Shown: piece after piece, positions 41,601 to 63,650 of the stretch | How positions within the stretch are numbered: position 1 is the stretch's first letter | How the letters are laid out: each line of letters starts with the position of its first letter | Assembly: GCA_963712695.1 (NCBI GenBank) | Contig: CAVQJD010000018.1 | Location: 5,720 to 69,719 of the forward strand | Origin: an uncultured Gammaproteobacteria bacterium | GTDB lineage: Bacteria > Pseudomonadota > Gammaproteobacteria > UBA9214 | Direction: 5' to 3' | Length of the DNA stretch: 64,000 bases | Notes under the pieces: generated by a model | Told to the model about the DNA's origin: nothing | What the model saw: only the letters and a program-made list of their open reading frames with translations | Databases searched by the model: none | Position numbers and translations under genes: made by a program

Positions 41601-41809
41601 CAACGGCCATTATCGGTGGTCTGCTGCCGATCATGTGGGGCAGCGGAACCGGTTCCGAGGTCATGCAGCGCATCGCCGCACCGATGGTGGGCGGGATGGT
41701 AACAGTGACTATACTCAGTTTGCTGGTGCTGCCGGTGGTATATGGACTTGTCTTGCAATGGCGTGAACGTTCATTGCCGGGGGAGCCGGCGGGTGATACC
41801 AGTGCGTGA
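38645..41809 (+). CDS. cusA: Heavy-metal efflux RND permease (CusA/CzcA family)
   Basis: MIRAIIDASLRNRFLVIIATLII...DAIPDLSDVQVIVFTRYPGQAP. About 1054 aa with a 12-TM pattern. The start was trimmed to ATG 38645. Confidence 0.88.
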   Translation: MIRAIIDASLRNRFLVIIATLIIVAAGLWALRNIPLDAIPDLSDVQVIVFTRYPGQAPQVVEDQVTYPLTTAMLAVPGARVVRGYSFFGFSFVYIIFNDGIDMYWARSRVLEYLNYVSSRLPAGVSPSLGPDATGVGWIYEYALVDRTGQHDLAELRSIQDWYLRYPLQTVQGVSEVASVGGFVKQYQVEVDPNLLQAYDVSLEKVERAIQRSNQDVGGRLVELAETEYMVRGRGYIQGIEDLKKIPVGVDARGTPIRLVDVANVHLGPELRRGLVELDGEGEVAGGVVVMRYGENALATIEGVREKLGELKKGLPAGVEIVTVYDRGDLIERAVDNLEEKLVEESIVVSLITILFLLHARSALVAIVSLPVGILMAFGVMYWQGINANIMSLGGIAIAIGAMVDGAIVMIENAHKHLEHSAVSKGHPLTLDERWDAVAEAAREVGPALFFSLLIITVSFLPVFTLQAQEGRLFAPLAFTKTFAMAAAAVLAITLVPVLMGYFIRGKILPEAKNPVNRVLHTLHAPVLRIALSWRWLTLLLAVLLLGGSLYPVMKLGSEFMPPLDEGDILYMPTTYPGLSIAKAKELLQQTDKILKTFPEVESVFGKVGRADTATDPAPLSMLETTVRLRHRDEWPDPGKSTRDLMSEMDLAIRFPGLANAWTMPIKTRIDMLSTGIKTPIGIKVSGPDLQVLEQLASDIEQVVKQLPETLSAFGDKAAGGYYLDFDLRREDAARYGLTVGDIQDVIQTAIGGMNITWTVEGLERYPVNLRYPRELRDNLEDLKRVLISTPTGTQIPLSLVADLHMRRGPPVIKTEDSRPNAWVYVDITTADIGGYVAQAKRIVEQEVKLPPGYTLAWSGQFEYMERAAQRLRIVVPVTLLIIFLLLYFNFRNIAEPLVVMLSIPFGLVGGFWLVYWLGFNLSVAVAVGFIALAGVAAEIGVLVLTFIDHEVARCRQAHARLTAGDIIQAVHKGTSERVRPIAMTATAIIGGLLPIMWGSGTGSEVMQRIAAPMVGGMVTVTILSLLVLPVVYGLVLQWRERSLPGEPAGDTSA

Positions 41810-42154
41810 GACGTGAGACGTGAGACGTGAGACGTGATACGTGAGACGTGAAACGTGAAACGTGGAAAGAAGAATGGCCACGGAATCCACGGAAGAACAC
41901 GGAAAAATAAAACAGTAGGTAGGGTGCGTTTTACGCACCGGGAACGGCGTCCGGGGTGCCTCTCGCGGCTGATGTGATGCGTGCAAAGAACAATGGCCAC
42001 GGAATCCACGGAAGAACACGGAAAAATTAAACATTAGGTAGGGTGCGTTTTACGCACCGGGAACGGCGTGCGAGGTGCCTCTACGATCTGTTGCTGCAAA
42101 AGCGATGCGTGCAAGAACAATGGCCACGGAATCCACGGAAGAACACGGAAAAAT
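41805..42154 (+). repeat. Composite repeat locus A: 9 CGTGAGA-type heptamers, three 36-bp triple-CACGGAA modules and two GTAG-headed REP hairpins
   Basis: Heptamers span 41805-41867. AATGGCCACGGAATCCACGGAAGAACACGGAAAAAT occurs at 41873, 41992 and 42119. GTAGGGTGCGTTTTACGCACC occurs at 41919 and 42039 region. Confidence 0.9.
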
Positions 42155-42185
42155 AATAATTGTGGGTCGTACCGATGGGTGATAG

Positions 42186-44659
42186 GTGAAATGTGCATGC
42201 GTGATGATGAATCTCACCAGGGAGATGCCTGTGACAATCGCAACTGATCCCGTGTGCGGTATGCAGGTCAGCAGCGACAGCCCGCACCGCTATAGCTACG
42301 CCGGCAGTGACTACTATTTCTGCTGTGCCGGCTGCCTGGAAAAATTCCGTGCCACGCCCGACCGCTATCTGCAGCCACAGCCGCTGGATGCGTCTCACGC
42401 CGGCACGCGCGCCGCTGCAAGCTGCAGCATCGATGCATCGCCTATACCTGCCCCATGCATCCGGAGGTCGAGCAGGCCGCTCCCGGTTCATGCCCGAAAT
42501 GCGGCATGGCGCTGGAGCCGGCAGCCGGGATGCTGCCGGTTGCGCGTACCGTGTATACCTGCCCCATGCATCCGGAGGTCGAGCAGGATCACCCGGGCAG
42601 CTGCCCGAAATGCGGTATGGCACTGGAGCCCCGCACCCACGCTGCGCGTGAGGATACCAGCGAACTGGATGCAATGACGCGGCGCTTGTGGGTCACGGCC
42701 CTGCTGGCTCTGCCGGTATTCGTGCTGGCCATGGTGGCGGATATGGCTCCCGCAGCGCTGCCTGAGGCATTGTCCATGCGGAGTGTGCAATGGATCGAGT
42801 GCGTACTGGCGACACCGGTCGTGCTGTGGGGTGGCTGGCCGTTCTTCGTGCGCGGCTGGCAATCCGTGGTGAGCTGGAACCTCAACATGTTCACCCTGAT
42901 CGGCCTGGGCGTGGCAGTTGCCTGGAGCTACAGCATCGTGGCCCTGCTGCTGCCACAGTGGTTCCCGCCGGCCATGCAGCATGCGGACGGCACCGTACCG
43001 GTCTACTTCGAGGCCGCTGCCGTCATCACCGCGCTGGTACTGCTTGGACAGGTACTCGAATTACGTGCCCGCAGCCGGACCAATGCGGCCATTAAGCTGT
43101 TGCTGGGGCTGGCGCCGAACAGCGCGCGCATCGTGCAGGCTGACGGGAGCGAGCAGGACATTGCACTGGAGCAGGTACAGCCCGGCAACATCTTGCGTAT
43201 TCGCCCGGGTGAAAAAATACCGGTGGACGGGGTGGTCACCGACGGCAGCAGCGCGGTGGATGAATCGATGGTGACCGGCGAACCGCTACCGGTGGAAAAG
43301 CACGCCGGCGAGCCGCTGATCGGAGCGACACTGAATGGTACCGGCAGTCTGCTGATGCGCGCGGAAAAAGTCGGCGCCGATACCCTGCTGGCGCAGATCG
43401 TGCGTATGGTCAGCGCGGCACAGCGTTCACGTGCCCCGATACAGAAACTGGCAGACAGCGTGGCCGGATATTTCGTGCCGACGGTGGTCATTGTCGCTGT
43501 CATTACCCTCGTTGCCTGGGGGTTCTGGGGGCCTGAGCCACGCCTGGCACATGCCATCGTCAATGCCGTTGCCGTGTTGATCATTGCCTGCCCCTGCGCG
43601 CTCGGACTGGCTACTCCCATGTCGATCATGGTCGGCACCGGCAGGGGCGCACTGCTTGGCGTGCTGATCAAGAATGCCGAGGCACTGGAGATCATGGAGC
43701 AGGTCGACACACTTGTGGTGGACAAGACCGGCACCCTGACCGAGGGAAAACCGGAACTGGTCGCGGTACAGGCCGCCCGCGGATTTATTGCTGATGAGAT
43801 GCTGCAACTGGCGGCCAGTCTGGAGCGCGCCAGTGAACACCCGCTGGCCGAGGCGATTGTGCGCGGTGCGCAAGACCGCGGCCTGATCCTGGGTCAGGCC
43901 GATGACTTCGAGTCTGCGACTGGCCAGGGTGTGACCGGAAAAGTCAATGGACGCAGGGTGGCGTTGGGCAACATCAGGCTGCTGGAAGCGCTTGGTATCG
44001 ATCCGGGTGATCTGGCGCACCAGGCCGAGGCCGGACGTACCGAGGGCCAGACCGTCATGTTTGTCGCTGTCGACGGCCGGGCCGCCGGGCTGATCGGCGT
44101 CGCCGATCCCGTCAAGGCCTCTACTGCAGAGGCCATTCGTGATCTGCATGCCGCAGGTGTCCAGGTCGTCATGCTGACCGGCGACAACCGGATCACGGCC
44201 GGGGCCGTGGCGCGCAAGCTCGGCATCGACCGTATCGAAGCCGAGGTATTACCGGCCCGGAAGGCAGAAATCGTCGGCAAGCTGCAGGCCGAGGGGCACA
44301 TCGTGGCCATGGCCGGCGATGGCATCAACGACGCCCCGGCGCTGGCCCGGGCTCATGTGGGTATCGCCATGGGTACCGGAACGGATATCGCCATGGAAAG
44401 CGCGGCTATCACGCTGGTCAAGGGCGACCTGCGCGGCATAGTGCGGGCACGGCGCCTGAGTCGCGAGGTGATGCGCAACATCCGTCAAAACCTGTTCTTT
44501 GCCTTTGTCTACAACTCGCTGGGCGTCCCGCTGGCAGCCGGGGTGCTGTACCCGGTGTTCGGGCTGCTGCTGTCGCCGATGATTGCGGCCGCCGCCATGA
44601 GTTTCAGCTCGGTGTCGGTGATCGCGAATGCGCTGCGCCTGCGCAAGGCGCATATCTGA
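42186..44659 (+). pseudogene. copA: Copper-translocating P1B-type ATPase with N-terminal TRASH/YHS domain and two CPMHPEV metal-binding modules; frame switch between about 42370 and 42440
   Basis: The frame of ORF 42186..42677 gives [34 protein letters not shown]. The frame of ORF 42455..44659 gives YTCPMHPEV (x2), [18 protein letters not shown] and the rest. The two frames overlap 42311-42677. Confidence 0.85.
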
Positions 44660-44758
44660 ACCACAGCGATACCCACCTGGCGAGGTGAAGGCGCAGGCCC
44701 GGCCCCGGGTCAATGTGAGGGGTATCCGTACAAGTCGGGTTGAGAGGCAGGAGGTGAC

Positions 44759-47666
44759 GTGATGGCCGTTCCCGAGGCGCAAATCCAGTTGCAGGGAAAC
44801 CGGCTGCTTGCCCGGATCGACCGGGAAGTGCAAGCGGCACGCCATGGCTGGCTCGACGCGCTGATCGAGCGCTCCATCCAGGATCGCGCATTCCGCCTGC
44901 AGACGCTGCGTTTTGTCGATGTACTTCCGGTGCTGCAGGATGATGCGGTGCTGGTTGCGCACCTGAAGGAATATTTCGCCGATGTCGAGTTGCCGTGGCC
45001 GTCCGTCAGCCACTGGAGCCTGCGCCACAGTGATGCCCCCTGGGCCGCGCCGATTGCTGCTCCGCTGGTGCGCATCACGCTGCGTGGCCTGTCGCGGCGC
45101 TTCATGGGCGGGAGTACCCTGCCGCAGGCAGTCGGCACCATCGCACGGCTGCGCCGCCTTGGCATGAACTACAGCATTGACCTGCTGGGTGAGGCCGTGC
45201 ACAGCGAACGCGAGGCAGATGCCTACCAGCAGGCCTATCTCGACCTGCTGTCGGGTCTGCCCGACGCCGGCGATGCGGCAGGCCAGCCCGAGGTCTCGCT
45301 GAAGCTCACCTCCCTCAGTTCCCGCATCCACCCGGCCGATCCGCGCGGCAGTGTCGCGGCCATTGCTGCGCGCCTGCGTCCGATCCTGGCACAGGCACGT
45401 GCGCGACAGATCGCGGTGACATTCGATATGGAACACTATGATGCCAGTCACATCATCCTGCAGTGTTTCAGGGAGCTGCTCATGGAACCGGAGTTGCGCG
45501 ACTGGCCGCACGCCGGGATCGCCGTCCAGACCTACCTGCGGGAGGCGCCGGACATCCTGCAGGGTTTGCTGGACTGGACCGGGGCGCGCGGCGTTCCGAT
45601 CAAGGTGCGCCTGGTACGCGGAGCCTACTGGGATGCGGAGTCCATACTCGCGCACCAGCAAGGCTGGGCGCTGCCGGTGTGGTCACACAAGGCGCAGACC
45701 GATGTCTGTTTCGAGTCCTGCCTCGATCGGCTGTTCGCACATCACGGTTTGATATACCCGGCGGTGGCCACACACAACATCCGCAGCCTGGCCTGTGCCA
45801 TGGCGCTGGCGGAGCAGCATGGCCTGTCCGCCGGCGATTACGAGTTCCAGATGCTTTACGGCATGGCGGACGACCTCAAGCGTGCACTGGTCGCGCTGGG
45901 TTACCCGTTGCGCGTATACGTCCCGTACGGTGCCACGCTACCGGGCATGGCCTACCTGGTACGCCGTCTGCTGGAGAACACCAGCGGCCAGACCATCCTG
46001 GATACCGGCATGGGACGTGTCGAGCAGGATGCACGCGTTCTGCTCCCGCCGGTGCCGCCAGCCGAGTCCGGGAAGGCGCCCGTCGAGCGCGCCTTCCGCA
46101 ACCAGCCGCTGCATCGCTTTGTCGCTGCCGGCGAGCGCAGCGCCTTTCGCGCGGCCATCAGTGCGGTGCATGCCGAACTGGGCCATGACTATCCGCTGGT
46201 AATCGACAACGCACCCGTTGCAGGTGACGGTCAAATCATCTCGATCAACCCGGCTCAACCCGATCAGATCATCGGCACAGTGGCCAGTGCCGGCCGGGAA
46301 CAGGCGGACCGGGCGCTGGCGGCGGCGCGCACGGCCTTTCCGGCCTGGCGCGCACTCACGGCAGACGTGCGGGCCGGGTATCTGCGTCGTCTCGCCGCCT
46401 TGCTGGTCGAACGGGACGTGACGTTTTGCTGCCTGGCAGGTGCTGGAGGCCGGCAAGCACTGGTGCGAGGCGGATGCCGATGTCTGCGAGGCTGTGGATT
46501 TTCTGAACTACTATGCGCTGCAGGCGCAGCGACTGGCCGCGGAAACGGTTGTCGAGCTCGGTGGCGAACATAATGCCGTGTCCTGCCGTGCGCGCGGTGT
46601 CGGGCTGGTACTCGCGCCGTGGAATTTTCCACTGGCCATTCTCACCGGCATGCTGTCCGCGATGATTGTCACAGGCAATACCGCCATCCTGAAACCGTCC
46701 TCGCTGACGCCGGTGATCGCCGCGCGCTTCATGGATCTGCTCATGCAGGCCGGTATCCCTCCGGGTGTGGTCAATTTCCTGCCGGGTCCGGGTCACGACA
46801 CCGGTGCCTACCTGGCCGCGCATCCCGAGGTCGCCATCATCGCCTTCACCGGCTCGCGCGAGGTGGGCACGCAACTGATCCGGACCGGGGCGCAGATCAG
46901 GCCGGAACAGTGCCATATCAAGCGCGTGATTGCCGAGCTGGGCGGCAAGAACGCCATCATCATCGATGACGATGCCGACCTCGATGCGGCCATACCGGGC
47001 GTGCTGCAGTCCGCCTTCGGTTTCCAGGGGCAGAAATGCAGTGCGGCGTCGCGGCTTATCGTGGTCGGGAGCATCTATCAGGCCTGTCTGGAGCGGCTGT
47101 GTGCCGCGACGGCCAGTCTGGCGATCGGTGATCCGTGTGATCCCGGCAATCTGCTCGGTCCGGTTATTGACGCCGTCGCACAACAGCGCATTGCAGCAGT
47201 AATCGAAAACGGCAAGTCCACGGCCCGGCTGGTCACGCCGGCACGCGTTGACTTGCCTGCCAGCGGGTATTATCAGTCGCCGGCAATCTTCACCGAGGTC
47301 GCGGCGGATGACCCCCTGGCGCAGGATGAGATCTTCGGACCGGTGCTGGCCGTGTTGCGTGCAGACTCGTTCGAGCAGGCCGTTGAACTGGCCAACAGTA
47401 CCCGGTATGCCCTCACGGGTGGTGTGTATTCACGCCGGCCGGTACACCTTGACTACGCGCGCAAGGCATTCCAGGCCGGCAACCTGTATCTCAACCGCAA
47501 GATCACCGGCGCACTGGTTTCACGACAGCCCTTCGGCGGTTTTCGCCTGAGCGGCTCTGGCAGCAAGGCCGGCGGGCCGGATTATCTCAGGCAGTTCACC
47601 GATACGGTCTGCGTTACTGAAAATACACTGCGGCGCGGGTTTGCACCCGAGGTGAAGGATGACTGA
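44759..47666 (+). pseudogene. putA: Bifunctional proline dehydrogenase / L-glutamate-gamma-semialdehyde dehydrogenase, frameshifted in a T-run at 46424-46427
   Basis: ORF 44759..46573 is PRODH plus the start of the ALDH domain (...LAALLVERDVTF). ORF 46440..47666 continues (AAWQ)VLEAGKHWCEADADVCEAVDFLNYY...EIFGPVL...GGFRLSGSGSKAG. One extra T separates them. Confidence 0.88.
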
Positions 47667-47892
47667 CGCAGGCTGGCCGCAGCACGGGTTTGTCGGCGGG
47701 ACCATTCACACCGAGAATTCCTGCAAGTATTCAATCGGGCAATTTCACGCACTGGCGGCAACAGCGGATTTCGTCCCGCTCCGCACCTGGGCTGACAGCG
47801 CCGGGTTGTTCAGCGTGCATTATCTGACGGTAAAGCAGCTGGCGCGAGTGCATCCACCGGGACAACCGCAGGGCTTGAAACGGGCCGGGTAA
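47659..47892 (+). pseudogene. C-terminal fragment of an EgtD-like histidine N-methyltransferase
   Basis: GGTIHTENSCKYSIGQFHALAATADFVPLRTWADSAGLFSVHYL matches the IHTENSYKY...WTD...FSVHYL C-terminus of EgtD-family enzymes. No N-terminal part is present, and the fragment overlaps the putA stop. Confidence 0.5.
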
Positions 47893-48014
47893 CTCCCCAA
47901 TTACGATGTGGAAGCGGATTCAGGCTCGAGAGTGAACCTGCGCCCGTGCACGCAGGATGCGGCAGGGCAGGTATGCACGGGTGACTCCGCCGCCGGACCA
48001 GAGAGGATTCCGTG

Positions 48015-49391
48015 ATGAGACCAGAAATACCATGCTGCAACCGACCGGTTCTGCCTGCGGCCCTTCTGCTGTGGGTGACCATGTTCTGCGCCGTGCACTG
48101 GGTACAGGCCGCACCGCCCCCGCCCGGCGCAAGTCTTGCGCCCATGCTGGAGCAGGTGCTCCCGGCCGTGGTCAACATCTCAACGCGCACCCGCGTCCAG
48201 CTGCAACACAATCCGCTGCTGGATGACCCGTTTTTCCGGCGCTTCTTCGATCTGCCGGATGTCCAGCCGCGCGCAAGGCAGGCCCAGAGCCGGGGTTCCG
48301 GCGTGATTGTCGATGCGGCGCAAGGCTATGTCCTGACCAATCATCACGTCGTCGACGATGCCGATGAAATCACCGTGACCCTGCGCGATCAGCGCACGCT
48401 GCCCGCACGCGTGGTGGGCCAGGATCCCGAGGTGGATATCGCGCTGCTGCAGATCGAGGCCGCCGACCTGACGGCGCTGCCGATTGCCGATTCCGACGCG
48501 CTGCGGGTGGGTGACTTTGTGGTCGCCATCGGCAACCCGTTCGGGCTGGGCCAGACCGTAACCTATGGCATTGTCAGCGCCCTGGGGCGCAGCGGGCTGG
48601 GCATCGAGGGCTTCGAGAACTTTATCCAGACCGATGCCTCCATCAATCCGGGCAATTCGGGCGGCGCGCTGGTAACGACGCAGGGTGAACTGGTCGGGAT
48701 CAATACCGCCATCCTCGGCCCGTCAGGGGCCAACATCGGGATCGGCTTCGCCATCCCCAGCAATATGGCGCAGGCTATCGTGCGGCAACTCGCCGAGCAC
48801 GGTGAAGTGCGGCGCGGGGAACTCGGCGTGGTGATCCAGGACCTGACCCCGGAGCTGGCCAGTGCGTTTGGCCTGCAGAACAGCGGCGCTGCACTGCTTG
48901 CGCAGGTACTGCCCGGTTCGGCAGCTGACCGGGCCGGGCTGGCGGCCGGCGATATCGTCGTCGCTGCCAACGGCCGGCCGATTCGCAGTGGCAGCGCATT
49001 GCGCAATGCCGTCGGACTGCTGTCGGTGGGAGACAGCCTGGCACTAGACATCATCCGCAACGGCCGGCCCCTGAGCCTGCGCGCCACCATCGCCAGCAGC
49101 GCCACGCTGCAGGGGGACGATGCGGGCCGGCTGAGTGACCGGCTTGCCGGTGCGGTGCTCGGTGAGCTGCCACCTGGACAGGCCGGCCGAGGTGTACAGG
49201 TGCTCGAGGTGGAACGCGGCAGCCCGGCCTGGCGAACCGGTTTGCGGCCGGGTGATATCATTGTCGCGATGAATCGCCAGGCGCTGGCTGGCATGGCGGA
49301 TGTCCCCGCGGCATTGCAGCGTGCGCCGGACAGCCTGCAACTGAATATCCAGCGCGGCAATGCGACACTGTCCATCTACATTCGGGACTGA
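48015..49391 (+). CDS. Periplasmic serine endoprotease, DegP/DegQ (HtrA) family with two PDZ domains
   Basis: GSGVIVDAAQGYVLTNHHVV, DIALLQI, TDASINPGNSGGALV and two PDZ-like segments are present, with a signal-like N-terminus. Confidence 0.9.
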   Translation: MRPEIPCCNRPVLPAALLLWVTMFCAVHWVQAAPPPPGASLAPMLEQVLPAVVNISTRTRVQLQHNPLLDDPFFRRFFDLPDVQPRARQAQSRGSGVIVDAAQGYVLTNHHVVDDADEITVTLRDQRTLPARVVGQDPEVDIALLQIEAADLTALPIADSDALRVGDFVVAIGNPFGLGQTVTYGIVSALGRSGLGIEGFENFIQTDASINPGNSGGALVTTQGELVGINTAILGPSGANIGIGFAIPSNMAQAIVRQLAEHGEVRRGELGVVIQDLTPELASAFGLQNSGAALLAQVLPGSAADRAGLAAGDIVVAANGRPIRSGSALRNAVGLLSVGDSLALDIIRNGRPLSLRATIASSATLQGDDAGRLSDRLAGAVLGELPPGQAGRGVQVLEVERGSPAWRTGLRPGDIIVAMNRQALAGMADVPAALQRAPDSLQLNIQRGNATLSIYIRD

Positions 49392-49515
49392 TGATGCGTC
49401 ACTGTTGTATCAGTGAACAGGGTCGACTGCGCTAGCCGCTTCCACCATGCTGACTGAAGCTTGCCTGCCGGTTCAAAACGTGGTCTGACCCTGGATGTGG
49501 AAAGGAGATAACTGA

Positions 49516-49632: not shown

Positions 49633-49743
49633 AATGAGGAGAATCAAGTGACCAGCCAGCGGCTGTTGTGCATGGCAGCTGTTGCTGGCCCGCAAGGGAG
49701 AAATGCAATGCCATGTCGTGCTGCGGTGGTAAACTGAGCGGCT

Positions 49744-50688: not shown

Positions 50689-50694
50689 GCGGTC

Positions 50695-51009: not shown

Positions 51010-51045
51010 GCGCGCGCCGGCCTGCCGAAACTACGCATACAGAAT

Positions 51046-51093
51046 GCAGGGTGCGCTTTGCGCACCATCATCGGTGCGTGAAACGCACCCTAC
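51046..51093. repeat. Solitary REP doublet (REPIN-like), 48 bp
   Basis: GCAGGGTGCGC-TTT-GCGCACC atcatc GGTGCG-TGAAA-CGCACCCTAC has the same length and layout as the doublets at 57818 and 57984. Confidence 0.75.
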
Positions 51094-52909: not shown

Positions 52910-54376
<1,467 letters not shown>

Positions 54377-54400
54377 CCACGTAAACGGAGACAATGACAC

Positions 54401-55153: not shown

Positions 55154-56484
55154 TCACCCGGGATCAGCAGCGCGACTGGGCACAGCAGCTGGTAGCGTCA
55201 GCAGCGGCCGGAGTGGCCGTTGCGCAGCCGGACTGGATGGGCGCGGCCCGCGACGCGGCCGTGCGGGCACTGGATACACTGCCACTGCTCGATCGCAAGC
55301 AGGAAGCCTGGCGCTACACCCGCATCGATTCCCTGCTGGAGGAGCAGTTTTTGCCGGCGGCCGATGCCCCCGAGGTGTCAACGGCGATGCTGGATGACTG
55401 TTTATTGCCGGCATTTGATGCGTCGCGGCTGGTGTTCGCCAACGGGCGCTTTATGCCCTGGCTGTCCAATTTGTATGATTTGCCGGCGGGTGCGCAACTG
55501 TGCAGCCTGCGCCAGGCACTGACGACAAATCCCCAACAGCTGGCGACCTGGTTTGGCCAGTCCGCACAGCATGGCGGGCATGTATTCACGGCACTGAATA
55601 CCGCGCTGGCGAATGACGGGGTCTATCTGCACATTGAAAACGGTGTACAGCTGGAGCGGCCCATCGAGGTGATTTACTTCAACCAGTGTCCGGACGCGCC
55701 GCTGCTGCTGCAGCCGCGCAGCCTGGTTGTGCTCGGGTCCGATGCAAAAGCGACGCTGGTCGAGCGCTTCATCAGTCCGGACCAGTCCGTGTATTTGCAC
55801 AACACACTCACCGAGATCGCGCTGGGTGCGGGCGCTGCCCTGAGCCACTACCGGATGCAGGATGAGAGCCGCCGTGCCTTTCACCTCGGCAGCGTGTACC
55901 TGCAACAGCAACAGCACAGCCGTTACCATGGCACTACCCTGGCGTTTGGCGGGCGCTGGGCCAGGACGGAATACAACACGACCTTCAGACAGGAGGGTGC
56001 GGAGTGTGCGCTGAACGGGCTGTACACCGTGGGCGATCAGCAGCTGAATGACTTTCACCTGGATGTGCGACACACGGTGCCCGGCTGTACCAGCCGCGAA
56101 CAGTTCAGAGGTGTGCTGTATGGCAAGGGACGCGCGGTGTTCGATGGTCGTATCCTGGTCGAGAAACAGGCGCAGCACAGCGATGCAGTCCTCACCAATG
56201 ACAATCTCGTGCTGTCCCGGGACGCCGAGGTCGACACCAAGCCGCAGCTGGAGATCCATGCCGATGATGTCAAATGCAGTCACGGTACCACCGTTGGCCA
56301 GCTCGATCCGCAACAGGTGTACTACCTGCGTTCGCGCGGTATCGATGCGGTGACTGCACGCAAGATGCTGTGCCTCGGGTTTGCCGGTGAGGTCCTCGAT
56401 ACGATCGATGTGCCGGTCCTGCGTGATCTGGCAGCCAACCGACTGGTGGAAATTCTCGGCAGCGCCGTGACGGCGGCGGAGTAG
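55150..56484 (+). CDS. sufD: Fe-S cluster assembly protein SufD
   Basis: 444-aa ORF with an ATGA overlap to sufC and C-terminal LEIHADDVKCSHGTTVGQLDPQQVYYLRSRGI. Confidence 0.9.
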   Translation: MITRDQQRDWAQQLVASAAAGVAVAQPDWMGAARDAAVRALDTLPLLDRKQEAWRYTRIDSLLEEQFLPAADAPEVSTAMLDDCLLPAFDASRLVFANGRFMPWLSNLYDLPAGAQLCSLRQALTTNPQQLATWFGQSAQHGGHVFTALNTALANDGVYLHIENGVQLERPIEVIYFNQCPDAPLLLQPRSLVVLGSDAKATLVERFISPDQSVYLHNTLTEIALGAGAALSHYRMQDESRRAFHLGSVYLQQQQHSRYHGTTLAFGGRWARTEYNTTFRQEGAECALNGLYTVGDQQLNDFHLDVRHTVPGCTSREQFRGVLYGKGRAVFDGRILVEKQAQHSDAVLTNDNLVLSRDAEVDTKPQLEIHADDVKCSHGTTVGQLDPQQVYYLRSRGIDAVTARKMLCLGFAGEVLDTIDVPVLRDLAANRLVEILGSAVTAAE

Positions 56485-56490
56485 CGGGCG

Positions 56491-56859
56491 ATGAACGAAA
56501 AGACTGCCGAACGGATAGAACAGCCCGCACTCGAGGCGGATACCCTGTCAGCGGATGCCGCGCTGGAGGCGCGCATTATCGCGGCCATGCGCAGCGTCTA
56601 CGACCCGGAAATCCCGGTGAACATCTACGATCTCGGCCTGATCTACGGGCTGGACATCAGCGCAGACGCCGAGGTGTCCGTGCGCATGACACTCACGGCG
56701 CCGGGCTGCCCGGTGGCCGGCATCCTGCCGGACCAGGTAGCTGCCGCCATCCGCGCGGTTGACGGCGTGAACGCCGTGCAGGTCGGCCTGGTCTGGGATC
56801 CGCCCTGGAGCCAGGACTGCATGAGTGACGAGGCCAGACTGACACTCGGCCTGTTCTGA
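56491..56859 (+). CDS. sufT: SUF-associated DUF59 (SufT/PaaD-like) Fe-S assembly protein
   Basis: VYDPEIPVNIYDLGLIYGLDI...VRMTLTAPGCPVAG is present. Confidence 0.8.
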   Translation: MNEKTAERIEQPALEADTLSADAALEARIIAAMRSVYDPEIPVNIYDLGLIYGLDISADAEVSVRMTLTAPGCPVAGILPDQVAAAIRAVDGVNAVQVGLVWDPPWSQDCMSDEARLTLGLF

Positions 56860-56872
56860 ACATGAGGAGTCA

Positions 56873-57205
56873 ATGACGATGGCTGTAGTACTGACGGAAA
56901 GCGCCGCCATGCACATCGAAACCATGCTGCACAGGCGTGGTCATGGCCTGGGTCTGCGCCTGGGCACAAAAAAATCGGGGTGCAGCGGCTTTTCCTATGT
57001 GATCGACTATGCCGATACGGCCGGCGACGACGATGTCGTATTCGAAAGCCACGGGGTCAAAGTCGTGGTAAACAAACAGAGCCTGCCGCAGCTGGACGGG
57101 CTCGAGATTGATTATCTCACTGATAATGCGCTTAACCAGGGCTTTGAATTCCGCAATCCAAACGTCAAGGATGCGTGCGGTTGTGGCGAATCTTTCAGTG
57201 TGTGA
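56873..57205 (+). CDS. sufA: A-type Fe-S carrier (IscA/SufA/HesB family)
   Basis: GLRLGTKKSGCSGFSY...FEFRNPNVKDACGCGESF is present. Confidence 0.88.
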   Translation: MTMAVVLTESAAMHIETMLHRRGHGLGLRLGTKKSGCSGFSYVIDYADTAGDDDVVFESHGVKVVVNKQSLPQLDGLEIDYLTDNALNQGFEFRNPNVKDACGCGESFSV

Positions 57206-57223
57206 TCAGGTGCGGCAATCATC

Positions 57224-57682
57224 ATGACCCGTCTGGATGACATCGTCGATATCTTCGAGCTGCTCGGCGACTGGGAGCAGCGCTACCAGTACCTGACCGA
57301 GCTGGGTGAGAAACTGCCCGCCATGCCGGAGGCGCTCAGGACGGAGGAGAACAAGGTCAGGGGCTGCATGAGTCAGGTCTGGGTGTGTGCCTGTCGTGAC
57401 GAGCACAATCCGGAAATCATCCATTTCTACGGGGACTGCGATACCAGCATCATCAAGGGCGTGCTGGCCGTGCTGATCCAGCTGACTTCCGGCAAGACGG
57501 TCGCAGAAGTGGAGCAGCTGGATGTCGACGTGCTGTTCAGTCGTCTGGGCCTCGATGAGCATCTCTCACCCAATCGCCATGTCGGTGTGTATGCCATCGT
57601 GGAACTGATGAAGCAGCAGGCCCGCAACCTGCAGTCTTCCCGCGTCAGTCACCTGACCGGGCAGTCCAGCGTCGGCTGCTGA
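57224..57682 (+). CDS. sufE: Cysteine desulfuration (sulfur acceptor) protein SufE
   Basis: WEQRYQYLTELGEKLP...KVRGCMSQVWV...FYGDCDTSIIKG is present. Confidence 0.88.
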   Translation: MTRLDDIVDIFELLGDWEQRYQYLTELGEKLPAMPEALRTEENKVRGCMSQVWVCACRDEHNPEIIHFYGDCDTSIIKGVLAVLIQLTSGKTVAEVEQLDVDVLFSRLGLDEHLSPNRHVGVYAIVELMKQQARNLQSSRVSHLTGQSSVGC

Positions 57683-57702
57683 CTGCACGGGGCAAGCCAT
57701 CG

Positions 57703-58315
57703 CGTGAAACGTGAGACGTGAGACGTGAGACGTGAAGCGTGAAGCGTGAGACGTGAAGCGTGGGCCTTGAAAAGAAGAGTAGCCGCGGAATCCACGGAAG
57801 AACACGGAAAAATTAATGTAGGGTGCGTTTTACGCACCGGCAGCGGTGCGCAGAGCGCACCCTACAACTGCGGGATGTTCCATTGCGTGAAACGTGAAAC
57901 GTGAGACGTGAAACGTGAAGGGTGAATTTAAACTCCGAATGATAATGGCCACGGAATCCACGGAAGAACACGGAAAAATTAATGTAGGGTGCGTTTTACG
58001 CACCGGCAGCGGTGCGCAGAGCGCACCCTACAACTGCGGGATGTTCCATTGCGTGAAACGTGAAGGGTGAATTTAAACTCCGAATGATAATGGCCACGGA
58101 ATCCACGGAAGAACACGGAAAGGATTTGAAAATTGTATACGAGTGAATCGTTCACTCCGGCAGAATGTCATGCATGGCAACTATGCCTGTAATGGTATCT
58201 AGTTAATGTTGTTTTTATTTTTCCGTGTTCTTCCGTGGATTCCGTGGCCATTAAATACAGCCCATTATTCACGTCTCACGTCTCACGTCTCACGTCTCAC
58301 GTCTCACGTTTCACG
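57703..58315. repeat. Composite repeat locus B: three forward units (heptamers, 36-bp module, REP doublet), a core of about 95 bp, then an inverted 36-bp module and inverted heptamers
   Basis: Forward heptamers lie at 57703-57765, 57886-57927 and 58052-58072. The 36-bp module lies at about 57778, 57944 and 58089. REP doublets lie at 57818-57865 and 57984-58031. The inverted module is at 58217-58252 and (CACGTCT)n at 58270-58315. Confidence 0.92.
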
Positions 58316-58386
58316 CAATGGTGTACAGAGCGTACCCGGCGTCTGCTGTCTCTGTCCCCTGATCTAAGCGGTGCTGCGAAATACGC

Positions 58387-59208
58387 CTATGCCTCGTCCT
58401 CGCGGTTGAGTTCCTTGATGATGTAGCCGCCGGATTTTTCGTCCAGCTGCAGTGACAGGAGCTTGCGTGCCTGTGCCTCTTCCAGCAGTTGCCCGAAGTT
58501 GCGAAATCCGTGGTAGGTCTCGTCGAAGCCGGGTTTGCGGCGTTTCAGGGTCTGCTTGACCATCGAGCCCCAGACCTTTTCCTGTTCGCCGCGTTCCTTG
58601 AGCAGGGCCTCGACCGTTTCCAGCACCAGATCCAGCGCCTCCTGCTGCTTGTCATCGTCGGTCTTCGTAGTGCTTTTCTTGTCCGCCTTCTTCACGCCGG
58701 CCTTGCGGCGCGCACGCCGTGGCTTGACAGATTCGCGTACCAGGTCGTCGTAGAAGATGAACTCGTCGCAGTTGGCAATCAGCAGGTCGGAGGTCGAACT
58801 CTTCACGCCGACCCCGATGACCACCTTGTCGTTTTCGCGCAGCTTGCTGACCAGTGGCGAGAAGTCCGAGTCGCCGCTGATAATCACAAACGTGTCGACA
58901 TGCGACTTGGTATAGCAGAGGTCCAGCGCGTCGACGACCATGCGGATGTCAGCGGAGTTCTTGCCTGACATGCGCACGTGGGGAATCTCGATCAGCTCGA
59001 AGGCCGCCTCGTGCATGGCCTTCTTGAAATCCTTGTAGCGATCCCAGTCGCAGTAGGCCTTCTTGACCACGATGCTGCCCTTGAGCAGCAGACGTTCCTG
59101 TACCTTCTGGATATCGAAGGCGGCGTACTTGGCATCGCGCACGCCCAGTGCGACATTTTCGAAGTCGCAGAACAGCGCCATATTACGGGTTTCGTTTTTT
59201 TCGTTCAT
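58387..59208 (-). CDS. NYN (LabA-like) nuclease domain protein with C-terminal OST-HTH/LOTUS domain
   Basis: ALFCDFENVALGV...GKNSADIRMVVDALDL...VIISGDSDFSPLVSKLRE (NYN) is followed by the C-terminal VWGSMVKQTLKRRKPGFDETYHGFRNFGQLLEEA (LOTUS). The start was trimmed to ATG 59208 (MNEKNETRN) behind AGGA. Confidence 0.8.
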   Translation of the reverse strand: MNEKNETRNMALFCDFENVALGVRDAKYAAFDIQKVQERLLLKGSIVVKKAYCDWDRYKDFKKAMHEAAFELIEIPHVRMSGKNSADIRMVVDALDLCYTKSHVDTFVIISGDSDFSPLVSKLRENDKVVIGVGVKSSTSDLLIANCDEFIFYDDLVRESVKPRRARRKAGVKKADKKSTTKTDDDKQQEALDLVLETVEALLKERGEQEKVWGSMVKQTLKRRKPGFDETYHGFRNFGQLLEEAQARKLLSLQLDEKSGGYIIKELNREDEA

Positions 59209-59371
59209 AACATCCTGTGTTGTCTGCTGCGTGGCCCCGGTCTCACCTTCATCCTGCGCGCAGGCCTGGTGAAATTCAGGCACAAGATAAGCGCCTGGCC
59301 GGAGACTTGCAATGATTACCTGCGGGTTACAGCTGTTCGCCGACGATAACCGCAGTTTCATGTCAGTCATT

Positions 59372-59876
59372 CAGGGTGCGTTTTACGCACCAGCGGCTGA
59401 TTTTATGAGACGTGAAAAGATAAAGAATGATGGCCACGGAATCCACGGAAGAACACGGAAAAATTTCCATCAGAAATCGTTTGGCTTGAAGGGTACACAA
59501 TGCATGCCTGCTTTGATTGGTTTTCAATTGACCGGGCGTTTGTTATACCCGAGACATTCCGTGTATTTCCGTGGCCATTTTCATTCGCACATGAGATGTG
59601 CTCAAAAGAATGTTTTCACGACTCAATTCCGTCACATTGCGCATTTATTTTTCCGTGTTCTTCCGTGGATTCCGTGGCCATTATCTTTCGCGCATGAGTT
59701 GCGCTCTTAAAGCAATGATGTCACGCCTCAGCTTTATAACATTGCGGTTTTATTTTTCCGTGTTCTTCCGTGGATTCCGTGGCCATTAAATACAGCGCCC
59801 ATTCACGTCTCACCTTTCACGTCTCACGCAGTAACGCACATGGTGAACCCAGCATTGCTCCTCTTCCGTGCCCATT
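59372..59876. repeat. Composite repeat locus C: forward REP, short heptamer and 39-bp module, a core of about 90 bp, then three inverted modules, inverted heptamers and a degenerate end module
   Basis: The REP is CAGGGTGCGTTTTACGCACC (59372-59391). The forward module is at 59426-59464. Inverted modules are at about 59555-59580, 59647-59682 and 59752-59787. Inverted heptamers span 59804-59828. Confidence 0.9.
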
Positions 59877-59996
59877 GGCAATTGAATTTCGATCGCGGAG
59901 CGTGACGACGCCCGGCAATCTGCCCGGGAGTGTCAGGGCCGGGAAACGGCGTGCTAACATCGGTGCTCGCTTCCGGCTCACGGACATCAGACGCAT

Positions 59997-60488
59997 ATGG
60001 CGCTTTCCCGCCGCAGATTTCTGCAGATCACCGCGGCCGGCCTGGCGGCCGGGCCGCTGGGCTGCGCCGGGCCGCAGTTGCAGGAATCCGGTGCGTTGGC
60101 CGGCGTGCTGGATGCCTACATCGATACCCTGCTGCCGGCCGACAGTGCCCCCGGGGCCGTGGAGCTGGGGGTGCCGGCGCAGGTGCGTGCCCTGGTGCGT
60201 TACAAACGCGCGCTGGTGCCCGTCTACAACAGCGGGCTCGCCTGGCTCGCGGCACAGGCGCAACTGCAGCAGGGCAAGCCGTTCGCGGCACTGGCGCTGG
60301 ACGGGCGCGATGCCCTGGTTTTGCTGCTCAGCGAACAGACCGATGAGTCACTGGCGCGTTTTTTTCACAAGAGCCTGCATCACGCCATGATGTTCTATTA
60401 CAGCCAGCCGGCCACCTGGCCAGCGCTCGGGCTGACCGGCACGCCGCAGCCGGCTGGCTTCATGGACTACGCGCAGGCCCCCGGCTGA
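59997..60488 (+). CDS. Tat-exported small subunit (gluconate 2-dehydrogenase subunit-3-like) of a GMC-type dehydrogenase
   Basis: MALSRRRFLQITAAGLAAG carries a twin-arginine motif. 163 aa, and the stop lies 3 nt before the GMC ATG. Confidence 0.65.
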   Translation: MALSRRRFLQITAAGLAAGPLGCAGPQLQESGALAGVLDAYIDTLLPADSAPGAVELGVPAQVRALVRYKRALVPVYNSGLAWLAAQAQLQQGKPFAALALDGRDALVLLLSEQTDESLARFFHKSLHHAMMFYYSQPATWPALGLTGTPQPAGFMDYAQAPG

Positions 60489-60490
60489 CC

Positions 60491-62131
60491 ATGGCTGACG
60501 GTTAATATGATGTCGTGATCATCGGCGCCGGCGCCGGGGGCGGCAGTGTTGCCTGGGGCCTGGCGCGTGCCGGTGTCCGGGTGCTGTTGCTGGAGGCCGG
60601 ACCGCGCTTCGATCCGGTCAGCGACTTCCGCCTCGATCTGCCGGCCTGGGAGCTGACGCGCTTTCCGGACAAGCCAGGCTCACGTGGCCGCTACAGCTAC
60701 GCCGAACTGCAGCCGCTCGATCCGCACCGCCAGCACCTGCGCTCCTACAACATCCACACCGGCCGCTATGCGCCGGGCGAGCGGCGCCACGCCCAGGGCT
60801 ATCAGCATGTGCGCGGTGTCGGTGGCAGCACGCTGCATTTCACCGGTGAGGCGCACCGGCTCAATCCGCGCGCCATGCGCCTGCACAGCGAGTACGGGGT
60901 TGGTGCCGACTGGCCACTGGATTACGCCGCACTGGAGCCCTGGTACGAGCAGGCCGAGCAGGTGATCGGCGTCGCCGGGCCGGTACAGACTGCGCAGCGG
61001 CCGCGCCGCACGCCCTGTCCGTTACCGGCGCATCCCCTGTCCTGGGCGAGCCAAAAGCTGGCCGACGGAGCGGCCTTCCTGGGCTGGGGCTGGGAGCCCA
61101 ACACCCTGGCTGCGCTGTCCCGGCCCTATGAGGGACGGCCGGGCTGCAACTACTGCCTGCAATGCAACCGCGGTTGCCCGCGCGGCGACAAGGGTAGTGT
61201 CGATGTCACCTTCCTGCGTGCCGCCGTGGCCAGCGGCAATTGCACCATCCAGACCGGTGTCCAGGTCACGCGCCTGCTGGCCGGCGACAACGATCGCGTG
61301 AGCGGGGTGGAGGTCCATGACGGCAGGGGCGAGCAGCGCCTGACCGCCCCGGTGGTGGTGTTGTGCGCCGGCAGCATCGAGACGCCGCGTCTGCTGCTGG
61401 CCTCCGACGGGCTCGGCAACGAGAGCGGCCAGGTCGGACGCAATTTCCTCGAGACCCTGAGCTGGGCCAGCATCGGGCTGCACCCGGAGCCGTTGGGTAG
61501 TCACCGCGGCCTGCCCTCGGACAGTATCTGCTGGGATTTCAATGCGCCGGACGCCATTCCCGGTGCGGTCGGCGGTATGCGCCTGAGCCCGGTGGTGGGC
61601 GAGGCCGATCTGTCCGGCGCCTTCAACTATGCCACGCGCGTGGTGGGTGGCTGGGGCCTGCGCCACAAGCAGGCCATGCGTGCGCGCTTCGGGCATGCGC
61701 TGGGCGTCGGGGCGATCGGAGAATGTCTACCTGATACAGGTAGTTACGTCGATCTGGATGCGGAGCAGCGCGATGCCGCCGGTATGCCCCTGGCGCGCAT
61801 CCACAGTCACCTGGGCGACATGGCGGTGCGCCGGCTCGAGTTCATGGCCGGACGCTGCCGCGAGTTGCTCATCGCCAGCGGAGTGGATACGCTGGTCGAG
61901 GAATATGGCAGTTACGACCTGTTCAGCGCCACGCACGTGTTCGGCACCTGCCGCATGGGGCATGACCCGGCACAGTCCGTGGTCAATGCCGACTGCCGTA
62001 GCCACCGCTGGCGCAACCTGTACATCGTCGATGGCAGCGTGTTTCCCAGTACGGGTGGCGGCGAAGCGCCGTCATTGACCATCGAGGCGCTGGGCCTGCG
62101 TGCCGCCGACCATATTCGCACCCGGGCATGA
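60491..62131 (+). pseudogene. GMC-family FAD oxidoreductase with an in-frame TAA at codon 5 (or a truncated GTG start at 60515)
   Basis: The start reads ATG GCT GAC GGT TAA TAT GAT GTC GTG ATC ATC GGC, that is MADG*YDVVIIGAGAGGGSVA. The Rossmann beta1-GxGxxG begins right after the stop. The C-terminal part has TCRMGHD...NLYIVDGSVFPS. Confidence 0.75.
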
Positions 62132-62244
62132 TCGGGGCAGCAGAATCGCTGTGTGCGTGACTATAATGACAGCACGTTGAATACAATAATGTGAATGCCG
62201 GCAGCGCGGCTGCAGCGAGCGCCGGCGTCATGAAGGAGCAAAAC

Positions 62245-63138
62245 ATGCAAGCACCCAGGACAACGAAAGTTATTTTCCTGCTGGCGATGACGATGGCCAC
62301 GGTCGATGTGGCCCAGGCCTTCGGTTTCGGCAATATGATGAACCCGTCCCGCTGGATGGGTGGTGACCGCGATCGTGACGACGACTATTACGGCGCGGCG
62401 CCGTACGGTTACGGCTATCCCGGCGGCTATGCCGCGCCGGGCTATGCGCCGCCCGGCTATGTGCAACCAGGCTACGCGGCACCCGGTTACGGTTACGGTT
62501 ACGGTGCACCGGTCTATCCGGCCCCGGTTATCGCTGCCCCCGCGCCCGCCGCTGTGCCGGCTCCGGTAGTCGCCGCCCCGGCCCCGGCCGCGAAGGCGGC
62601 TGCCGCCAAGCCGCCACCCGTATTGACCGCCGACGAGGCGGAAATCGCGCGGCTGCAAAAGCGCATCCGCGAACTGGAAGCCGCCGGTGAAACACCGGTC
62701 TACACCGTGCCGACCGGCACGGGTTCGGCTGGCAGTGCGACCAGCGCATATCCCGACAGCTCGCCCTACAACCAGGACTACCGCTTCCCGGACAGCACCC
62801 AGGGGCATGCTGCCCCCGCGGCGGCTGAAGCGGCGCCCCGGGCCGTCAAGGCGCAGCCCGAATACCCGGTCTATTCACCCTTTGGCCCGCCCGCGGAGTT
62901 CCCGCCACTGGAGCCGGAGCCGGCTGCAGCGACTGAGGACAAGGCGGTTGCGGCGCCTGTGGCCGCGCCGGCTGCATCCGCCGCGCCGGTCGCAGCGAAA
63001 AGCGTGGAAGTCGAGGCACCGCCTGCAGCGGAGCCGACAGTGCCAGCCGGTGTGGTCAACTTCACGCCCGGCAACCCGGCGGCGTACGTCCCACCCATGC
63101 AGAACACCGGCCAGCGGGTGTACGAACTGGGACGCTGA
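62245..63138 (+). CDS. Exported low-complexity Gly/Tyr/Pro/Ala-rich protein (possible sulfur-globule-envelope-like structural protein)
   Basis: An AAGGAG RBS lies 6 nt upstream of ATG 62245. The signal peptide is MQAPRTTKVIFLLAMTMATVDVAQA. YYGAAPYGYGYPGGYAAPGYAPPGYVQPGYAAPGYGYGYGAP is followed by Ala/Pro-rich tracts. Confidence 0.6.
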   Translation: MQAPRTTKVIFLLAMTMATVDVAQAFGFGNMMNPSRWMGGDRDRDDDYYGAAPYGYGYPGGYAAPGYAPPGYVQPGYAAPGYGYGYGAPVYPAPVIAAPAPAAVPAPVVAAPAPAAKAAAAKPPPVLTADEAEIARLQKRIRELEAAGETPVYTVPTGTGSAGSATSAYPDSSPYNQDYRFPDSTQGHAAPAAAEAAPRAVKAQPEYPVYSPFGPPAEFPPLEPEPAAATEDKAVAAPVAAPAASAAPVAAKSVEVEAPPAAEPTVPAGVVNFTPGNPAAYVPPMQNTGQRVYELGR

Positions 63139-63169
63139 GGAAACCGTGGGGGCAGGGCAGGTTTGTATT

Positions 63170-63650
63170 AATGGCCAAGGAAGCACACGGAAATGCACGG
63201 AAAAATGCTGGGTGCACTCTGTGCACCAGCGCGTGAGAGTGAGACGTGAGACGTGAGACGTGAGACGTGAGACGTGAGACGTGAGACGTGAAGCGTGAGA
63301 CGTGAAATGTGAGACGTGAAACGTGAGACGTGAGACGTGAAACGTGAATGATGGGCTGTGTCATATTTAATGGCCACGGAAGCACACGGAATGGAATCCA
63401 TGTATGCACAGGAACGATTCGCTCTGCCCGGCTGTGTGCCGAGGCATAGCGCTGGCATATGATAGCTCTTTGTTATTATTGTTTTATTTTTCCGTGTTCT
63501 TCCGTGGATTCCGTGGCCATTTAATACACCCCGTCATTCACGTTTCACATTTCACGTCTCACGTCTCACGTCTCACGTCTCACGTCTCACGTCTCACGCA
63601 GCAACGCTCAGATTGCACCCAGCATTTTTCCGTGTGCTTCCGTGGCCATT
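63170..63650. repeat. Composite repeat locus D: imperfect palindrome of about 480 bp built from the same modules (17 forward and 8.5 inverted heptamers)
   Basis: A variant module is at 63170-63206 and a hairpin at 63207-63230. Heptamers span 63232-63349. A variant module is at 63369-63402. The inverted module is at 63486-63521 and inverted heptamers at 63539-63598. The inverted end module is at 63615-63650. Confidence 0.92.

Follow-up and report, generated by a model that had tools for sequence, protein, structure and literature searches.

Short intergenic repeats of several kinds are known in bacteria. The enterobacterial repetitive intergenic consensus elements (ERIC, also called intergenic repeat units, IRU) of enterobacteria and vibrios are imperfect palindromes of ~127 bp that are conserved across genera. 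DNA of the repetitive extragenic palindrome (REP) type is normally species-specific. The short tandemly repeated repetitive (STRR) sequences of cyanobacteria are heptamer repeats. REPs headed by GTAG, REP dimers, mosaic intergenic regions and terminal inverted repeat (TIR) families tied to tyrosine transposases have been described (PMC3733652). Intergenic TAACTGA arrays occur in Beggiatoaceae, with a proposed post-transcriptional binder (PMC4679880), and a passage of the same paper, citing Mrazek 2007, states that the long simple repeats of bacteria are most often heptanucleotide repeats, which it ascribes to slippage. Here we analyze a stretch of 64,000 nt from an uncultured gammaproteobacterium (GenBank assembly GCA_963712695.1, contig CAVQJD010000018.1, positions 5,720 to 69,719), called the window below. 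Four intergenic loci in it are composed of a 36-bp module with three CACGGAA heptads (M), arrays of the heptamer CGTGAGA (H) and hairpins with a GTAG head. An earlier sequence-only reading regarded these parts as one family of three modules in one cyclic direct order. The loci are probably a mosaic of three separate repeat systems, tandemly amplified, in which M is the palindromic core, H is a microsatellite and the GTAG hairpin is a REP or a REP doublet (REPIN).

The four mosaic loci reported by the sequence-only reading are real. M (AATGGCCACGGAATCCACGGAAGAACACGGAAAAAT) is found 11 times in the window at three or fewer mismatches, compared with none in 100 shuffles. All 11 copies fall within 41873-63521, seven on the plus strand and four on the minus strand. 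CACGGAA occurs 49 times (8.4 expected) and double heptamers (CGTGARACGTGARA) occur 32 times (0 expected). Tandem Repeats Finder detects heptamer arrays at each of the four loci, with lengths of 3.7 to 16.7 units, and also tandem higher-order units of 119 and 105 bp. Together the loci amount to ~1.95 kb, in good agreement with the earlier estimate of about 2 kb, and they are non-coding and modular as had been proposed. A run of CGTGAGA repeats contains TGA in each of its three forward frames, and its opposite strand is free of stops, which accounts for artefactual open reading frames (ORFs) such as SRLTSHV.

The plan of M is T-N-G-CCACGRAA-TC-CACGRAA-GAA-CACGRAA-AAA, a module of 27-36 bp with three heptads. 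The heptads are spaced 9-10 bp apart and therefore lie on one face of the helix. A logo of 152 secondary copies reads T-N-G-CCACGRAATCCACGRAAGAACACGRAA-AAA, and most of the variation consists in the replacement of the second G of a heptad by A, in all three heptads. In variant modules all three heptads are altered together, to CACGAAA, CACGGAC or CGCGGAA. M is not self-complementary and lacks a tag of the GTAG or CGTC kind. The distribution of M was obtained by an exact scan with its inner 27-mer, using one genome per species, and the 27-mer is present in at least 117 stretches from ~35 genomes among the matches listed (stretches from relatives are cited by L numbers). Carriers among these matches include at least 12 Marinobacter genomes, Tamilnaduibacter salinus and Oceanisphaera, isolates included, together with metagenome-assembled genomes (MAGs) labelled Ectothiorhodospiraceae and Lysobacteraceae and many unclassified Gammaproteobacteria. 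By NCBI taxonomy these names belong to Pseudomonadales, Aeromonadales, Chromatiales and Lysobacterales; the isolates represent two orders, and the MAG labels may be unreliable. Many of the M-bearing genomes have no GTAG REPs. M alone is the widely shared unit and the core of the family.

The orientation of M was analyzed for 283 sites in 118 sources. Adjacent copies in the order plus then minus are less than 700 bp apart in 85 of 85 pairs. The reverse order, minus then plus, is found in 22 pairs, all but one at least 780 bp apart, and the DNA between them consists of ordinary housekeeping genes. From this strict spacing it follows that the unit is an inverted pair with the GGCC ends outward; the AAAAAT ends point inward around a short centre. 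Each arm is 27-36 bp long, the centre is not conserved between lineages, and the 85 pairs thus have terminal inverted repeats bounding a short non-coding element, as in MITEs (small transposable elements with inverted repeats). In low-GC MAGs the pair is an ~85-bp hairpin with 27-bp arms and a loosely conserved loop of ~24 nt. In Marinobacter it is a nested composite of ~200 bp, M1-spacer-M2-loop-M2'-spacer-M1', in which M2 has CACGAAA in its three heptads. Nested M1-M2...M2'-M1' composites are also present in Tamilnaduibacter, with a CGCGGAA variant module outside M1, and in Oceanisphaera M stands at the head of an element of ~300 bp. Runs of T and A beside M lengthen the palindrome rather than trail it. 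Arms that stand alone and arrays in direct tandem order are frequent. The architecture is predominantly inverted, i.e. palindromic, and not merely cyclic-direct. In the window the GTAG hairpins do follow the cyclic order that was proposed, but each of loci 2, 3 and 4 forms a large imperfect palindrome (H-M-...-centre-...-M-H) with a plus half and a minus half.

A stretch of Marinobacter sp. OP 3.4 (L077, 535-3300) has M hairpins between small accessory genes, a layout that on the surface recalls a cassette array. The stretch has no core sites of the attC type, and integron attC sites were rejected on anatomy. The neighbours there include a 121-aa protein that we take by eye to be GxxExxY/PD-(D/E)XK-like and a 181-aa protein with the look of a GNAT toxin.

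The H arrays range from 2 to 18 units overall; three of those in the window are on the minus strand, and a short leader, CCAT(T/C)G or a variant, precedes each array. They have the properties of heptanucleotide long simple sequence repeats and STRR-type microsatellites, being head-to-tail 7-nt units longer than chance and variable. Among the arrays of at least three units (n = 41), a co-oriented M follows within 80 bp in 24, and an M of opposite orientation does so in only one. In 411 kb of loci not chosen for M there is a single H array, which is the orthologue of locus 2, and H is absent from most M-bearing genomes. H is thus a co-oriented satellite of M. The earlier statement that heptamer number varies holds within the window and between relatives. 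The two adjacent units of locus 2 that were described as identical except for 6 versus 3 heptamers do measure 166 and 145 bp and do differ by one 21-bp gap of exactly three heptamers. They also carry three substitutions, and their boundaries had been misplaced: 57984-58121 spans 138 bp, and the true units are 57778-57943 and 57944-58088. Five tandem H-M-REP units of ~200 bp on a 290-kb MAG contig (L037) contain 5, 4, 2, 4 and 2 heptamers. Downstream of sufE the array has 8 units in the window and 18 in an independent metagenome contig whose SufE is 98% identical (L134), the latter count being uncertain as it comes from a short-read assembly. In a more distant relative (84% SufE identity), sufE is followed by three tandem 105-bp units of M and a different hairpin. 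M stays the same and its companions vary. The 100-200-bp units are not a CRISPR array; the heptamers are contiguous, and the units repeat their "spacers" as well, at 93-98% identity.

L134 reproduces the sufE-H-M junction, and a frameshifted transposase of the rve type (integrase core) follows directly after the sufE-H-M arm (4160-4707). This transposase was considered as the mobilizer of M and rejected, its ends being unrelated. The H-M junction of L134 is of the type seen in the opposite arm in the window, which suggests either an inversion between inverted H arrays or a chimeric join. An origin of the arrays by short-read mis-assembly over low-complexity sequence is extremely improbable. 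In its favour, the window belongs to a metagenome-derived contig of 78 kb, short reads give poor size estimates of pure 7-bp arrays, and L134 may be chimeric across H. However, dozens of independent assemblies, among them complete isolate genomes and contigs of 290-640 kb, contain these modules in the same order and with the same junctions, and the junction of sufE, H and M is seen again in an independent sample. Similar arrays are present on MAG contigs of 290-500 kb, L037 among them. An artefact is unlikely, and the exact heptad counts are the only item at risk.

The third module is GTAG-GGTGCG-TTTTA-CGCACC with a GC-rich stem of 6-7 bp, that is, an imperfect palindrome that carries GTAG as an unpaired end tag, as in REP and REPIN sequences. 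GTAGGGTGCG-TTTTA-CGCACC starts at 41919, 42038, 57818 and 57984, and at 59372 without the full head; GGTGCGTTTTACGCACC is located at 41923, 42042, 57822, 57988 and 59375. Inverted doublets of the REPIN kind are present at 57818-57865, 57984-58031 and 51047-51093. The last of these is a solo doublet with no M or H nearby. Beside M the GTAG hairpin can be replaced by other hairpins. The right half of locus 3 has a GCGCAnnnnnTGCGC hairpin in its place, and GTAGGAGCGCATCTCATGCGCGAT, a second GTAG REP family, occupies the same position beside M in a related MAG (L044). Locus 4 combines two-heptad variants of M with the hairpin GGTGCACTCTGTGCACC. The GTAG hairpins are thus a REP/REPIN family of the ordinary sort, independent of M and H. 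With the hairpin independent and replaced in relatives, and with H a satellite of M, the idea of a single family of three modules has to be given up. In one gap between convergent genes, an H/M palindrome is found in L017 (5950-6300), while an unrelated GTAG REP doublet (GTAGGAGCGCC...) is found in L048 (1400-1570). Different repeat families colonize the same site.

The mosaic reading can be put in terms of a mechanism. The inverted pair of M would be a small non-autonomous palindromic element of the MITE or ERIC kind. H would be a (CGTGARA)n microsatellite on the outer side of M, co-oriented with it, whose length changes by replication slippage, and the GTAG hairpins beside M would be ordinary REP or REPIN elements. 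Composite units of 100-200 bp (M, hairpin and H) may duplicate in tandem by unequal recombination or slippage. The products are arrays resembling bacterial interspersed mosaic elements (BIMEs) and palindromes of up to 600 bp. The M arms may be recognition sites for a trans-acting protein, either a transposase (DDE, or HUH of the TIR-associated tyrosine type, TIRYT) or a host factor, which would spread the copies. Any effect on the host, such as mRNA structure or gene-end protection, would then be secondary.

Presence and absence of M at orthologous sites are as seen for MITEs. Marinobacter nauticus has a clean 95-bp hairpin insert that M. persicus does not have (L090 and L088), flanked by an imperfect AACTGCRTTTT direct repeat of 11-12 bp. 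Two Marinobacter species (L003 and L010) have a composite of 250-300 bp between a stop codon and the next ribosome-binding site (RBS), compared with 30 bp in M. vinifirmus (L024). M is present downstream of sufE in the window and two relatives (e.g. L137) and absent there from five others (e.g. L135 and L138-140).

Several results weigh against a mobile element of this kind. No mobilizing gene lies between any M pair, and no ORF lies inside any plus-then-minus pair. In the 117 loci no protein family recurs beside M as a candidate partner; the families that recur are housekeeping ones, and an autonomous insertion sequence (IS) with the same ends was not found among the listed loci. No target-site duplication is visible at the L003, L010 and L024 site or in 23 aligned hairpin copies, and no duplication, TA included, gives a consistent signal. 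Many M sites persist between species that share just 73-93% identity in the flanking proteins, and the arms of M are far more conserved than the loops and outer flanks. Such retention and arm conservation fit selection or concerted evolution better than neutral junk. Changes on one arm only number 278, compared with 51 matched changes (22 expected), in 95 distinct pairs. Since one-sided changes dominate, sequence rather than pairing is conserved in M; conservation of structure alone was rejected for the same reason, even though matched changes are enriched. Retention together with invariance of the 27-mer across orders is not what neutral selfish DNA predicts. Finally, as weak evidence, tblastn with a crude probe for the REP-associated tyrosine transposase (RAYT) found no such Y1 transposase in the window or in the 117 loci (0.9 Mb of M-adjacent DNA).

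The RAYT result also bears on a single system of the REP/RAYT type, in which M is the TIR family of a HUH RAYT/TIRYT transposase and moves together with the GTAG REPs as single-stranded hairpins. GTAG REPs and REPIN-like doublets stand directly beside M here and in relatives, the copies have no consistent target duplication, which is what HUH enzymes would give, and TIR dimers and clusters tied to TIRYT genes have been described (PMC3733652). Nevertheless, M is no palindrome by itself and lacks a GTAG or CGTC tag, and in many genomes M occurs without these REPs, as REPs do without M. We regard such a common system as quite unlikely.

The placement of M relative to genes is biased. Of 98 classifiable sites, 56 are between tandem, 32 between convergent and 10 between divergent genes, and five are inside called ORFs. 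The outer end of M faces the 3' end of a gene 133 times and the 5' end 73 times, and 36 of the 133 are within 20 nt of the stop codon. In four Marinobacter species (L116, 2040-2503 on the minus strand; L024, 1441-1900; L093; L010) an M1-M2 palindrome of ~200 bp is located in the leader of a cobalamin riboswitch. It sits between the aptamer and the hairpin that sequesters the RBS of the regulated gene, i.e. within the expression platform. The position of M inside leaders and operons argues that it is transcribed and does not terminate transcription. Predicted folds are extremely stable: as single strands, 63165-63655 (locus 4) folds at -295 kcal/mol (z = -19.9) and 57690-58330 (locus 2) at -326 kcal/mol (z = -24.9).

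These features raise the question of whether the host selects the M palindromes with H for hairpins that they form in transcripts or DNA. The roles could be protection of mRNA 3' ends, RNase III sites between cistrons, or barriers to convergent or antisense transcription. In the antisense version, the antisense strand of H, (UCUCACG)n, is C-rich and G-poor like a Rho loading site. The enrichment after 3' ends, the over-representation of convergent sites, the riboswitch leaders, the stable folds and the conservation of arms over flanks at orthologous sites all speak for this explanation. On the other hand, the orientation of M follows the palindrome centre and not the direction of neighbouring genes, sites are present or absent between close species, and the numbers of units and heptads vary freely. 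Scans for consensus promoters and terminators gave nothing above shuffles, and no U-tract terminator signature was seen. Sites inside operons and leaders argue against termination, and sequence, not pairing, is conserved. Selection by the host for such a structural role is unlikely as the main explanation. An intrinsic terminator in particular was rejected, with no U-tract, no excess over shuffles and M lying between a riboswitch and its gene.

The 9-10-bp spacing of the heptads, their concerted change and the conservation of sequence above pairing suggest that the M heptads may form a recognition array for a protein. The omega repressor of pSM19035 binds contiguous 7-bp heptads and offers one model, in which H and the three M heptads are cooperative platforms that serve as regulatory or nucleoid-organizing sites. 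The other model is the post-transcriptional binder proposed for the TAACTGA arrays, which gives a precedent of intergenic heptamer arrays with proposed binders (PMC4679880). The helical spacing, the joint shifts of all three heptads (the three variant forms given above) and the exact 27-mer that is invariant across orders are consistent with binding. No candidate protein or linked gene was found among the listed loci, however, the arrays adjoin unrelated housekeeping genes, their length is unconstrained (2 to 18 units), and H is absent from most M-bearing genomes. Binding platforms of this sort are very doubtful. A bolder version, to which we give low credence, is that M is the recognition array of some conserved protein that keeps the 27 nt invariant in two or more orders, and probably in four. 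On this view the M/H palindromes would mark functional boundaries at gene ends, as loading or blocking sites of that protein on DNA or RNA, and would not be selfish DNA, and the co-changed variant heptads would correspond to paralogous pairs of protein and site. Among known binders, CANGGANG is the CsrA-type motif and CACGGAAG fits it, but a GGA sponge of the CsrA type was rejected, since the stem of the usual inverted pair hides these motifs and both strands carry them. The consensus sequences of MetJ, DnaA, sigma-54 and SlmA sites were compared by eye and none fits.

The neighbours are ordinary chromosomal genes at all four loci. Locus 1 follows cusCBA. Its leader ACCAGTG and H array (8.6 units of CGTGAGA/CGTGAAA; 41798-41864, plus strand) supply the last codons of cusA. 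The terminal codons ACC AGT GCG TGA are the H leader plus the first heptamer, so the stop codon of this ORF (TGA, 41807-41809) lies inside the first heptamer as the sequence-only reading had noticed. Three exact copies of M follow on the plus strand, at 41873-41908, 41992-42027 and 42119-42154. The second begins the second 119/127-bp tandem unit, and the third is ~30 nt 5' of a YHS/copZ-like ORF. Each of the first two is followed by a GTAG-headed REP hairpin on the plus strand (41919-41939 and 42038-42058). Between locus 1 and locus 2 lie the YHS protein gene, copA, putA, degP, cbpA, two hsp20 genes and sufBCD-T-A-E.

Locus 2 starts 20 nt past the sufE stop with the leader CCATCG and an H array of 8 units (57697-57758, plus). 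It continues with an M copy with three mismatches at its outer end (57778-57813, plus), the REPIN-like doublet of two inverted GTAG REPs (57818-57865), an H array of 6 units (57886-57927, plus), an exact M (57944-57979, plus), the second copy of the doublet (57984-58031) and an H array of 3 units (58052-58072, plus), 21 bp shorter than that of the preceding unit. The left arm of the central palindrome is an M with three mismatches at its inner end (58089-58124, plus), the centre is non-repeated (58125-58216), and the right arm is an exact M on the minus strand (58217-58252). An H array of 7 units with the leader CCATTG (58267-58321, minus) faces the 3' end of the gene of an NYN-domain protein. 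This gene, on the minus strand, separates locus 2 from locus 3. Its ORF (58387-59370) encodes 327 aa from the first ATG, compared with 271 aa in homologues that are ~90% identical. The true gene is therefore probably 58387-59202, and the gap that holds locus 3 would be nearly 800 bp. The homologues are ~90% identical across lineages and yet not syntenic.

Locus 3 has on its plus half a single REP hairpin (CAGGGTGCGTTTTACGCACC, 59372-59391), an H remnant (TGAGACGTGAAAA, 59406-59418) and an M with one mismatch (59429-59464). A non-repeated centre (59465-59555) is followed by the minus half, which consists of a two-heptad M variant (59556-59579), a second REP-type hairpin (GCACATctcATGTGC, 59580-59606) lying immediately 5' of M as M is oriented, an exact M (59647-59682) in a 105-bp tandem unit, the second REP-type hairpin again (GAGCGCAACTCATGCGCGAA, 59683-59712), which is homologous to the hairpin beside M in L044, and another exact M (59752-59787). 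An H array of ~4 units with its leader (59801-59835, minus) faces the gene for a gluconate dehydrogenase subunit. The genes from locus 3 to locus 4 encode gluconate dehydrogenase subunit 3, a GMC oxidoreductase and a low-complexity protein.

Locus 4 opens on the plus strand with an M variant (AATGGCCAAGGAAGCACACGGAAATGCACGGAAAAAT, 63170-63206), followed by the variant hairpin (63211-63227), the longest H array in the window (16.7 units, 63232-63349, plus) and a two-heptad M variant (63369-63391, plus). Beyond the non-repeated centre (63392-63485), the minus half contains an exact M (63486-63521), an H array of ~9 units (63536-63598) and a two-heptad M variant (63624-63650) that forms the outer end of the 480-bp palindrome.

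Other repeats and irregularities were seen in the window. The low-complexity protein upstream of locus 4 (ORF 62191-63138) is rich in Gly, Tyr, Pro and Ala (GYGYPGGYAAPGYAPPGY...) and has no Pfam match, and its DNA has 15-bp and 39-bp tandem repeats at 62412-62601. A 77-bp direct repeat with 84% identity (42443-42630) codes for two heavy-metal-binding (HMBD) motifs at the N-terminus of a CopA-type ATPase. The putA gene is present as two overlapping ORFs (44759-47666), one (44759-46573) with PutA_N, Pro_dh and the beginning of Aldedh and the other (46440-47666) with the remaining Aldedh. The split marks either a pseudogene with a frameshift or an error of sequencing. At the other end of the window, the 3' part of tRNA-Phe (984-1059) is repeated directly over 67 bp at 1011-1077 and 5605-5671 with 87% identity. 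The repeats bracket a 4.6-kb insert of lower GC with a DUF4143/AAA_14 ATPase gene (984-5671), which looks like a small integrated islet.

The suggestion that this combination of repeats is undescribed is supported by the searches. Rfam 15 has no family at M, H or REP, at permissive thresholds on the window and at gathering thresholds on 21 loci; matches elsewhere in the loci are riboswitches and a tRNA only. M has no match in PLSDB, INPHARED or IMG/VR, and a plasmid or phage origin was rejected on this basis. Blastn against 5,426 E. coli genomes gave no match, and M is therefore not REP/BIME, ERIC, RSA or Box C of E. coli. The searchable literature, queried by exact sequence and by topic, returned nothing for M or H. 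The family, with its triple-heptad core, attached heptamers, nested variants and cross-order spread, appears uncatalogued in everything searchable. If its spread is as the listed matches suggest, it is an unannotated repeat class that makes up a sizeable intergenic share in Marinobacter and in uncultured Gammaproteobacteria of sediment and soil. It breaks short-read assemblies, makes false ORFs, gives stop codons to genes such as cusA and sits in riboswitch leaders and operons. A core that is kept letter for letter across orders while its surroundings differ is unusual for REP-like DNA and points to a conserved partner protein. The family is also a clean natural system for heptanucleotide slippage, amplification of higher-order units and palindrome growth in bacteria.

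Among known systems, the BIMEs of E. coli resemble the loci in several ways. Both are extragenic mosaics of a REP hairpin and short motifs in regular order (here M-REP-H), amplified in tandem with variable copy number, and both are located mostly after genes and between convergent genes. In contrast to BIMEs, this family has no sequence relation to E. coli repeats, and its constant partner is the 36-bp triple-heptad M, which occurs alone in many genera. Heptamer microsatellites are part of the unit, and the REPs of successive units are direct, alternating only inside doublets. With ERIC elements the family shares small, imperfect, non-coding palindromes that are intergenic and often transcribed, a sequence kept across genera with varying copy number and sites, and longer variants made by internal insertion. 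The likeness is one of behaviour; the sequence is unrelated, as E. coli genomes, which carry ERIC, gave no match, and the M arms are three direct heptads around a centre that is not conserved between lineages. MITEs such as Correia/NEMIS of Neisseria likewise have terminal inverted repeats of ~30 bp, are small and without an ORF, show presence/absence polymorphism and have many copies near gene ends. M differs from them in the want of a consistent target-site duplication or a same-ended parent IS and in its common solo arms and tandem direct arrays. The likeness to REP and REPIN sequences (PMC3733652, PMC3116915) is confined to the third module, with its GTAG head, GC-rich stem, inverted doublets and extragenic position, and to the second GTAG REP family beside M; M and H are untagged and M is not self-complementary. 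H resembles the TAACTGA arrays (PMC4679880) and STRR heptamers as a pure, variable, intergenic 7-nt array of 2 to 18 units. Its sequence is different, it goes with M in one set orientation rather than standing free, and it is found mainly after stop codons, not just before start codons. The general kind of repeat is a familiar one, with a BIME-like architecture and an ERIC- or MITE-like behaviour of its core.

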